This document shows, piece by piece, positions 19,825 through 22,290 of a DNA stretch of 64,000 nucleotides. The position numbers and the translations under genes were made by a program. The notes under the pieces are model-generated. The model was not told the origin of the DNA and made no database searches. It saw only the letters and a list, made by a program, of their open reading frames with translations. Positions within the stretch are counted from its first letter, which is position 1. The number at the start of each line of letters is the position of its first letter. Source of the stretch: an uncultured Verrucomicrobiota bacterium (GTDB lineage Bacteria; Verrucomicrobiota; Verrucomicrobiia; Limisphaerales; UBA1100). The DNA lies in the NCBI GenBank assembly GCA_964616045.1, contig CAZTTU010000002.1, positions 6,392-70,391 of the forward strand. Direction: 5' to 3'.

Positions 19825-22290
19825 ATGACAGAAAAACAAGTAACAACCCAAGTGGGTGACAAAGAGATAACCATCGGCACTGGCCATATTACAAAGCAGG
19901 CTGATGGCACCGTAACAGTGCAAATGGGCGAGACCATCGTGATGACGGCGGTTGTCGCCGCCACCAAGGGCCGTGAGGGACAGGACTGGTTTCCACTGCA
20001 AGTGGATTACCGAGAACGTGCCTTTGCTTGCGGGCAAATTCCCGGAAACTATTTCCGCCGCGAAGGTCGCCCAAGTGACAAGGAAATCCTCACCTGCCGC
20101 CTCACGGACCGGCCGATTAGACCGCTCTTCAAAAAGGGCTGGTTCAATGAGTGCCAGGTGTATGGCCTGTTGCTCAGCGCCGATGGTGAGAATGAGCCGG
20201 ACGTTTTGAGCATCCTTGGTGCGTCTGCGGCGCTGATGGTCAGCGATATCCCGTGGGATGGTCCTCTGGGCGCTGTTCGTGTAGGGCGAGTGGATGGAAA
20301 ATTTGTGGCGAATCCAACTAACGATGAACAGGCGGAGAGTGACCTTGATCTCCTTTACGTTGGCAACGAGACCGATGTAGTGATGTACGAAGGTTCTGCT
20401 GATCAAATCACCGAGGCTGACTTTATTAAGGCTCTCAAGTTTGGTCAGGAATGCTGCGTGCCGCAAATCACCGCGCAAAAAGAACTTGCTGCCGAATGCG
20501 GCAAAGAGAAACGTGACATTAGCGATCAGCTTTTTGTGGTGCCCCCCGCCATTTTTGAAAAGGCGGAGACACTCGCTGGGGACGACATTGTTGATGCATT
20601 GCTGACTATCGCAAAGCTTGAGCGGGAAAACAAGGTGGGCGCAATCAAGGACAACGTTGCAGCTAAGCTTCGCGAAGAGTTTGGGGAAGAAGAGATTACT
20701 GACGCAGTTGTTGACCAGGCCTTCTACCATATTCAAAAGACTGTGCTACGTGGTCTCATTCTTGATAAAGGGCAGCGCCTGGATGGTCGCAAGGTTGACC
20801 AACTGCGTGAGGTTACTTGTGAGGTGGGCGTGTTGCCTCGGACACATGGTTCAGCGTTGTTCACTCGCGGAGAAACTCAAGCTTTGGTGACCACTACCCT
20901 CGGCACCACTGACGATGCACAGCGTTTTGATAGTTATACGGGTGGGGTGGATAGAAAGCAGTTTATACTCCACTACAACTTTCCGAATTACTCAGTTGGC
21001 GAAACAGGTCGAATTATGGGCCCTGGTCGTCGCGAGGTGGGTCATGGAGCGCTAGCGGAACGCTCGCTTCTGCCCATGTTGCCGATGGATGACAACTACC
21101 CCTATGCTGTGCGACAGGTCAGTGAGATCCTTGAGTCGAATGGTTCTAGTTCCATGGCTAGTGTTTGCGGTGGTAGTTTGTCTCTGATGGATGCGGGTGT
21201 GGAAATGAAAGGCACTTGCGCAGGCATCAGTATTGGTATTTGCACCAAGCTTGATGACAACGATAAAATTGACGACTACCGAATTCTTACCGATATCATG
21301 GGTTGGGAGGACGCCTTCTGTGATATGGATTGTAAAATCGCTGGCTCCAAGGAGGGTATCACGGGCTTCCAGCTCGATCTCAAGCTAAAGGGCCTGCCTA
21401 TGAACATCATGGAAGAGGCTATTGAGGCTGCCCGCAAATCTCGTCATGAAATTATTGATATCATGAATGAGACTATCAGCAAGCCTGGTGAGATGAGTCC
21501 TTATGCTCCGCGTATTACGCAGCTTAAGGTTGATCCTGAAAAGATTGGTATGATTATTGGGCCAGGTGGCAAGAACATTAAACGTATTGTTGAAGAGTCA
21601 GGTTGTGAGGTTAATATTGAGGATGATGGTACGGTAAATATTTACTCCCTTAATCCTGAAGGGATGAAGGTGGCAATTGAGGAAATTGAAGGCATGACCG
21701 CAGAGGCGGAAATCGGGAAAATCTATCACGGCACGGTTGTTACGATTAAGGACTTCGGCTGTTTTGTCGAGTTTCTGCCGGGCAAGGACGGCCTCTGCCA
21801 CATTAGTGAGCTCGCAAACACCCGTGTCAATCGTACCGAGGACGTGGTCAAGGAAGGTGATAGGATTCACGTGAAGTGCCTTGGCGTGGATGAGCGAGGC
21901 AAGGTGAAGCTCTCCCGTAAGGCTGCGATGTCAGAGATGGATGGTGAAATTGACGAGGTCAACGGAGATTCAGTTGACAGCACAACATCTCCTCGCGAAA
22001 AGCGAGAGGTCAGTGAGGAGGAGCCTGAGGAAGGTAAACTATACCATGGAACTGTTGTGACCATTAAGGACTTTGGCTGCTTTGTTGAGTTTCTTCCGGG
22101 TCGTGATGGTCTTTGTCACGTCAGCGAGTTGGCTACTTCCCGTGTTAAAAACGTTGAAGACATTGTCCAGACAGGCGATAAGATTTGGGTGAAGTGCTTG
22201 GGTGTCGACGACCGTGGCAAGGTGCGTCTTTCCCGGAAGGCAGCCATTGCTGACCGTGAGGCTGAGGAAAGCACCCCTGCCGAAGACTAG
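19825..22290 (+). CDS. pnp: Polyribonucleotide nucleotidyltransferase (PNPase) with two C-terminal S1 domains
   Basis: Two RNase PH-like halves ([58 protein letters not shown]), a KH domain ([15 protein letters not shown]), then two S1 copies. 821 aa. Confidence 0.95.
21715..22246 (+). repeat. In-frame tandem duplication of the PNPase S1 domain (copy 1 at 21715-21928, copy 2 at 22033-22246)
   Basis: [71 protein letters not shown] versus [71 protein letters not shown]. By hand alignment 56 of 71 residues are identical. The copies are separated by an acidic linker. Confidence 0.9.

Follow-up and report, generated by a model that had tools for sequence, protein, structure and literature searches.

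One question raised by the pnp gene in a 64,000-nt stretch of DNA from an uncultured Verrucomicrobiota bacterium is why its product, a polyribonucleotide nucleotidyltransferase (PNPase), ends in two S1 domains, and where the second of them came from. PNPase is among the best-studied enzymes of RNA decay, and the choice between degradation and protection of an RNA is made at its flexible KH-S1 portal. We refer to the whole 64,000-nt stretch as the window; coordinates are positions in it and features lie on the plus strand unless stated otherwise. The gene occupies 19825..22290, including the stop codon, and was defined as an open reading frame (ORF) of 821 amino acids (aa) with TIGR03591 and Pfam matches. 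We regard it as probable, though well short of assured, that a single tandem duplication of the S1 domain took place in the ancestor of three genera of one Limisphaerales family and that the second copy was kept as an RNA-capture arm. Taken by itself, the claim that this second domain (S1b) is real, old, under purifying selection, predicted to fold and equipped with conserved counterparts of the RNA-contact residues of Escherichia coli is highly likely to be right.

The first-pass annotation described the 821-aa product as ending in two S1 domains, and the profile searches bear this out. The protein scores 992.3 bits over aa 9-700 against the equivalog model TIGR03591 (cut-off 525) and 984 bits against NF008805 (cut-off 471), which places it among the PNPases. 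It falls below the cut-off of TIGR02696, the model for guanosine pentaphosphate synthetase I/PNPase (697.5 bits against 1106.75), and below those of the models for ribosomal protein S1, encoded by rpsA, of which NF005208 is the best with 130 bits against 368, and TIGR00717 gives 81 against 577. By family membership the product is a bona fide PNPase, which would be expected to act as a phosphorolytic 3'-5' exoribonuclease in the form of a homotrimer. Its Pfam architecture consists of two RNase_PH domains (PF01138), RNase_PH_C (PF03725), PNPase (PF03726), KH_1 (PF00013) and two S1 domains (PF00575). The S1 profile detects two stretches and not one (E 2.5e-30), S1-type NCBIfam models match at both aa 624-713 and aa 725-809, and a seed hidden Markov model (HMM) built from the two copies was used to set the domain bounds, aa 626-705 and 732-811.

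The first or canonical S1 domain (S1a, aa 626-705, 21700..21939) follows the KH domain (aa 565-622, 21517..21690; PF00013, E 1.8e-13). The best Pfam stretch within S1a is aa 628-699, and both 1sro and solved PNPases match the domain residue by residue. An acidic linker (aa 706-731, 21940..22017) with a net charge of -6 separates it from S1b (aa 732-811, 22018..22257), which is the second Pfam stretch, is matched by NCBIfam at 731-807 and by the seed HMM with 173 bits. A short acidic C-terminal tail (aa 812-821, 22258..22287; net charge -5) completes the protein and is similar to the tail that follows the single S1 domain in sister genera. The linker terminates in a motif, REVS[ED], that is conserved across the clade to which this genome belongs. 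The copies are also recognizable in the DNA as a direct repeat (21715-21929 and 22033-22247; 73% nucleotide identity) whose units are spaced 318 nt apart; sliding identity at the 318-nt offset is raised solely between about 21710 and 21935. In the protein, similarity between the copies is still detectable over a unit of about 88 aa, with copy starts 106 aa apart, and BLASTP aligns S1a and S1b with 58 of 78 residues identical (E 1e-45). The details given by the first-pass annotation were accurate: a recount of aa 631-701 against 737-807 again gave 56 of 71 identical residues, the acidic linker of about 35 aa between those narrower bounds is exactly 35 aa long with 14 Asp and Glu and three Lys and Arg, and the synonymous difference GGCACGGTTGTTACG versus GGAACTGTTGTGACC is present as written.

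A tandem repeat in a metagenome-assembled genome could be the product of a misassembly, and the annotation had argued that this one is not. S1a and S1b are 67.5% identical in DNA over 240 nt, and because the copies are just 67.5-73% identical, an assembly artefact or collapse is excluded. The comparative conservation across genomes of the same family is the strongest evidence: the architecture recurs, with diverged sequence, in 22 other genomes of the family. Assembled contigs bridge the junctions as well. Contig X3, which comes from a third run in a separate study and is 100% identical, covers 21877-22047 and thereby reaches from the last part of S1a across the linker to 30 nt inside S1b. Contig X15 (502 nt, from an RNA library) covers 21685-22163 without gaps, through S1a and the linker and into S1b; it is only 93% identical and therefore comes from a relative rather than the same genome, and it is no proof of transcription, since RNA libraries can contain DNA. 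Two further contigs, X1 and X2 (two runs), span the whole stretch and are possibly the source of this DNA, so they are not independent. An assembly artefact or collapsed repeat is thus ruled out by the divergence of the copies, by a frame conserved in 23 genomes and by the bridging contigs.

The duplication is old. Of 80 aligned S1a/S1b codons, 26 match exactly, 32 show a synonymous and 22 a non-synonymous difference, and codon positions 1, 2 and 3 are 79%, 86% and 37.5% identical, respectively. A comparison of non-synonymous with synonymous divergence (dN and dS, with ratio omega) between the copies, which the annotation had proposed, was only half informative: dN is 0.22 by NG86, and dS is saturated, with a maximum-likelihood value of 25.6 and no estimate from NG86, LWL85 or YN00. 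Because of the saturation, neither an age nor a reliable omega between the copies can be given. That the duplication is old follows instead from the saturated synonymous sites together with the separation of S1a and S1b orthologues into sister clades, described below. Between species, both S1 copies are under strong purifying selection. For orthologue pairs with estimable dS, omega is 0.011-0.061 for S1a and 0.00-0.088 for S1b, compared with 0-0.056 for the KH domain and 0.015-0.05 for the core, the latter after exclusion of core rows with amino acid identities of 0.31-0.64, which were misaligned by fixed offsets. Among 27 non-redundant clade members the two domains are conserved to the same degree, with a mean column entropy of 0.36 bits in S1a and 0.35 bits in S1b. 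Saturated synonymous sites, separate orthologue clades and low omega in both copies all agree with the proposal of an old duplication maintained by selection.

These observations bear directly on the possibility that the second S1 domain is a tolerated appendage without function or stems from faulty assembly or gene calling. The architecture is rare and all genomes concerned are metagenome-assembled, which would suit such an explanation, but S1b has an omega of at most 0.088 between species, its frame is continuous in 23 genomes, independent contigs bridge its junctions, its DNA has diverged from that of S1a to the extent given above, and it has a confidently predicted fold in the AlphaFold2 (AF2) model. 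We consider this possibility to be extremely improbable.

The two copies each have conserved positions of their own. R29, K44, V46, W57 and R80 are conserved in S1b where S1a is variable or different, and C21, E52, G62 and V63 are conserved in S1a where S1b is variable. Rates also differ among lineages. Three homologues of 815-819 aa, P0035, P0037 and P0087, which by identity and length are apparently the majority form of genus g1, are 86-89% identical to this protein in the core and 93% in the KH domain, with 75-76% in S1a, 79% in S1b and 31-42% in the linker. Because the S1 identities are the lower ones, both S1 domains of that lineage have outpaced the core. The reverse is seen in P0002 and P0007, whose S1 domains are better conserved than the core.

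How widely the architecture occurs was surveyed at three levels, and the mapping across Verrucomicrobiota that the annotation had called for found that it is not unique to this genome and has several origins. Within the family, 31 genomes were searched with the C-terminal 216 aa as query (E up to 1e-22) and 26 gave a match. Both S1 domains lie in one frame without stop codons in 23 of these, distributed over genera g1 (13, including this genome), g5 (8) and g4 (2); the remaining three have the first S1 only, two in g2 and one in g3. The five genomes without a match are 56-88% complete. In one genus-mate (locus L010) the pnp frame is split within the core into pieces of 349 and 395 aa, the C-terminal piece carrying both S1 domains, and either a frameshift or an error in sequencing could account for the split. 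In a protein search all of the best 120 matches listed carry two S1 domains, and the source labels among close homologues are Limisphaerales bacterium, Pedosphaera sp. and Opitutae bacterium.

In a sample of 301 genomes of the order, 274 had a match. A single match spans both domains in nine genomes (families f1, f89, f90 and f96) and 23 genomes gave two or three matches; reading of the ORFs confirmed doubles in one genome each of f8, f108, f111, f119, f132 and f141. Doubles amount to about 30 of the 274 genomes (11%) and to 10 of 86 sampled families, where unread genomes are inferred to be doubles from the two-match pattern within those families. Among the two-match genomes of the surveys as a whole, two were rejected as doubles, one (G720) with two contigs that each carry a single S1, the other (G347) with a single-S1 pnp and a different multi-S1 protein on another contig. 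A further genome, G711, has two partial matches on opposite strands and is not among the confirmed doubles. Across the phylum, 396 of 401 sampled genomes had a match and only five other doubles were found (about 1%), each read as one ORF (G338, G302, G206, G275 and G362).

The linkers differ between these lineages. In the double-S1 clade to which this genome belongs they are 21-28 aa long and acidic. Those of other classes are neutral and 10-30 aa long. The majority of the order's other families have linkers of 37-131 aa, most of which are Arg/Gly/Glu-rich repeats, and one linker has 284 aa. Long low-complexity segments of this kind (RGGRGERG-like) are frequent in PNPases of the order, either as a disordered tail after a single S1, as in the relatives L022-L030, or as the linker between two, as in L021, L031, L033, L034 and L051. 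Three S1 stretches are found in two PNPases, P0150 (914 aa) and P0157 (983 aa), and a 788-aa protein, P0141, has three KH and five S1 stretches and no RNase PH domain. All three come from the top 150 of a 50%-identity representative library, which yielded mostly fragments and multi-S1 proteins and is of little use for counting doubles outside the phylum.

The presence of doubles in about 10 of the order's families, and also in other classes of the phylum, might suggest one ancient duplication behind all double-S1 PNPases, with the second copy lost from single-S1 relatives, including g2 and g3. Consistent with this, S1a and S1b of the group with long linkers cluster separately across families, and at least one older duplication is therefore common to several families. 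A single origin for all is nevertheless very unlikely. S1-domain trees (80 columns, quick searches) were built from 31 non-redundant representatives of the 120 listed homologues together with loci from relatives. In the tree of 81 rows, the 13 S1a and 13 S1b domains of the clade form two sister groups, and their joint clade has a Shimodaira-Hasegawa-like approximate likelihood ratio test (SH-aLRT) value of 92, making the clade's S1a and S1b each other's closest relatives; in the tree of 103 rows, the 13 S1a are set apart by a branch of their own (84), and so are the 13 S1b (92). A constraint that unites all 42 S1b domains in a single clade is rejected by the approximately unbiased (AU) test, with a log-likelihood (lnL) 164 lower and p-AU 8e-5. 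Forcing the clade's 26 S1 domains together gives an lnL 15.5 above that of the free quick search (p-AU 0.78). In the core tree (61 rows, 515 columns) the double-S1 clade (support 99, starred) is sister to the single-S1 genus g2 (support 86), and the double or single state requires at least eight changes, six of them forced by starred branches. The length and composition of the linker, wholly different between lineages, also argue against common descent of the second domain.

The S1-domain trees, the AU tests and the core tree together indicate a single S1 duplication on the stem of genera g1, g4 and g5, after which the copies would have diverged without concerted evolution. Judged by the same comparisons, the other lineages of the phylum gained their second S1 by separate duplications. 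By the S1-domain trees, S1b arose from S1a of the same enzyme rather than from rpsA.

Whether S1b could bind RNA can be considered from the residues that do so in known PNPases. The numbering is simple, as residue n of 1sro corresponds to aa 625+n of S1a, aa 731+n of S1b and E. coli residue 616+n; in a structure-sequence search, query positions 67-141 pair one to one with the residues of 1sro. The RNA-binding site of the PNPase S1 domain is composed of F19, F22, H34, D64 and R68 according to excerpts of PMC6832287 and PMC6705787. At the equivalent positions S1a and S1b of this protein alike have F, F, H, D and K; position 19 of S1b is F in this genome and Y in 74% of the 27 clade members. In the E. 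coli complex of PNPase, Hfq and small RNA, the RNA is gripped by a basic loop of R681, Q682, R684 and R686, according to an excerpt of PMC8294330. The equivalents of the loop (1sro 65, 66, 68 and 70) are E-R-K-K in S1a and D-R-K-R in S1b, within the stretches E-R-G-K-V-K and D-R-G-K-V-R, respectively, and the S1b set is conserved in the 27 clade members. On these residues, S1b would be expected to bind RNA.

AF2 predicts the same fold, apparently a beta-barrel, for S1a and S1b. The model, made with 36 aligned sequences, has a mean predicted local distance difference test (pLDDT) score of 86.3. S1b scores 80-90 and has five strands (aa 739-748, 751-757, 760-765, 786-794 and 800-803) in the same order as S1a, and between strands 3 and 4, the place of a helix in the S1 fold, the DSSP assignment of the model has just two three-residue helical turns in S1a and S1b alike. 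The linker scores below 50 at aa 707-729 and is accordingly taken to be a disordered tether.

If the enzyme is a homotrimer by analogy with the solved PNPases, it would present six S1 domains rather than three. The three S1a domains would occupy the usual KH-S1 portal and the three S1b domains would each hang from an acidic, disordered tether some 26-35 aa long. S1b would then most likely serve as an additional, far-reaching RNA-capture arm that raises avidity for RNA and retains substrates or passes them on to the portal and central channel, in particular when they are long or structured. Because RNA-contact residues have been kept on a disordered tether, three extra capture sites of longer reach per trimer would be the simplest reading. 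The annotation had suggested that a second S1 might alter the capture of RNA substrates or autoregulation.

The main rival to a capture arm is a regulatory or docking role. The acidic linker and tail might act as an RNA mimic on the S1 surfaces, in autoinhibition or in tuning of specificity, or S1b might bind another component, for example RNase E/G or the ribosome. The net charges of -6 and -5 would fit such a role, as would the conserved positions peculiar to S1b, which suggest some specialization, and a gene for RNase E/G is present in the same window (11909-13183, minus strand). However, the full set of RNA-contact residues, including the basic loop, is kept in both copies, and because other double-S1 lineages have Arg/Gly-rich or short neutral linkers, an acidic tether is no general requirement. 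We therefore consider a mainly regulatory or docking function for S1b to be unlikely.

A further consideration is what other RNA-decay factors the cell possesses. Neither the RNB domain of RNase II and RNase R (PF00773) nor Hfq (PF17209) was detected in five family genomes (G000, G004, G018, G015 and G016), four of them with a completeness of 90% or more; all five encode RNase E/G. In the order sample, RNB is present in 192 of 301 genomes. Among genomes in which pnp was read, RNB is absent from eight of nine doubles compared with eight of 18 singles (naive Fisher p 0.042). An association of double S1 with RNB absence was rejected as not significant once kinship was allowed for, and it is a hint rather than a result. 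It is a doubtful but conceivable extension that S1 copy number in PNPase is a tunable trait which has repeatedly gone from one to two, and sometimes three, mostly in lineages without RNase II/R. A tandem arm would then, like ribosomal protein S1, capture and melt structured RNA, and PNPase, as the sole processive 3'-5' exoribonuclease, would do the work of RNase R and helpers.

Several points weigh against the capture arm and the history proposed for it. RNA binding by S1b, the trimer geometry and the effect of S1b on substrate capture are all deduced. With their strong negative charge, the linker and tail might repel RNA or cover the S1 surfaces instead of aiding capture. The single-S1 sister genera likewise have neither RNB nor Hfq, and the absence of these proteins alone therefore does not account for the duplication. 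The association of double S1 with RNB absence is weak, with five phylogenetically independent pairs and a median sign-test p of 0.25, in groups that were defined after the data had been seen. With 80 columns and a quick search, the resolution of the S1 trees is limited.

In all but its C-terminus the enzyme resembles canonical PNPases. It has the same order of RNase PH, alpha-helical, RNase PH, KH and S1 domains as the enzymes of E. coli (3cdi, 7ogk and 1sro) and Caulobacter (4aim and 4am3), its KH and S1a domains align end to end with the solved chains, and the rpsO-pnp gene arrangement is likewise shared. It differs in the addition of an acidic linker of 26-35 aa and a second complete S1 domain. 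Each of the solved PNPase chains matched (705-784 aa and two fragments) aligns to KH and S1a alone in one stretch and none has a second S1, in agreement with the annotation's remark that the second S1 sets this protein apart from characterized PNPases. Ribosomal protein S1 (bS1) also has tandem S1 folds of the oligonucleotide/oligosaccharide-binding (OB) type, arranged as beads on a string, and the best match of S1b in the PDB is 6h4n_y (query 166-243). A different ORF of this genome, on contig C111 and 571 aa long, also has multiple S1 domains, and the pnp product, as noted, falls below the rpsA cut-offs. The PNPase of seed-plant mitochondria has an additional S1 domain too, "as determined by bioinformatics" according to an excerpt of PMC9181182; there the enzyme is eukaryotic and the extra domain reportedly N-terminal, whereas here a bacterial enzyme has a C-terminal tandem. 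The other double- and triple-S1 PNPases of Verrucomicrobiota have separate origins and different linkers.

A literature search, which reached the sources in excerpts, found no bacterial PNPase with two C-terminal S1 domains described. Judged on its predicted architecture, the double-S1 PNPase is an undescribed, modest variant of a well-known enzyme and not a new kind of system, and the functions proposed for it are deduced. Its significance lies in being a natural variant with, putatively, six S1 domains per trimer, long fixed in abundant uncultured marine Verrucomicrobiota. Repeated invention with very different linkers would constitute a natural experiment on how S1 number and reach relate to substrate capture. 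Annotation pipelines label double-S1 proteins as plain PNPase, and so conceal the second S1.

Directly 5' of pnp lies rpsO (19407..19667), an ORF whose product is, by its translation, probably ribosomal protein S15; its start is probably an internal ATG of the listed ORF 19347..19667. The intergenic leader between rpsO and pnp (19668..19824) is predicted to form a long hairpin, with a minimum free energy of -51.8 kcal/mol and a z-score of -2.66, and two of 200 shuffled sequences fold equally well. The hairpin presumably resembles the autoregulatory hairpin in the pnp leader of E. coli. The leader matched no Rfam family in a scan of 18500-23000 with E up to 1, and the same scan returned, besides two chance-level matches, a single tRNA gene (19200-19273, minus strand; RF00005, 62 bits) just upstream of rpsO. 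Just 3' of pnp is a 455-aa ORF (22334-23701) that by its translation is an apparent LpxC-FabZ fusion.

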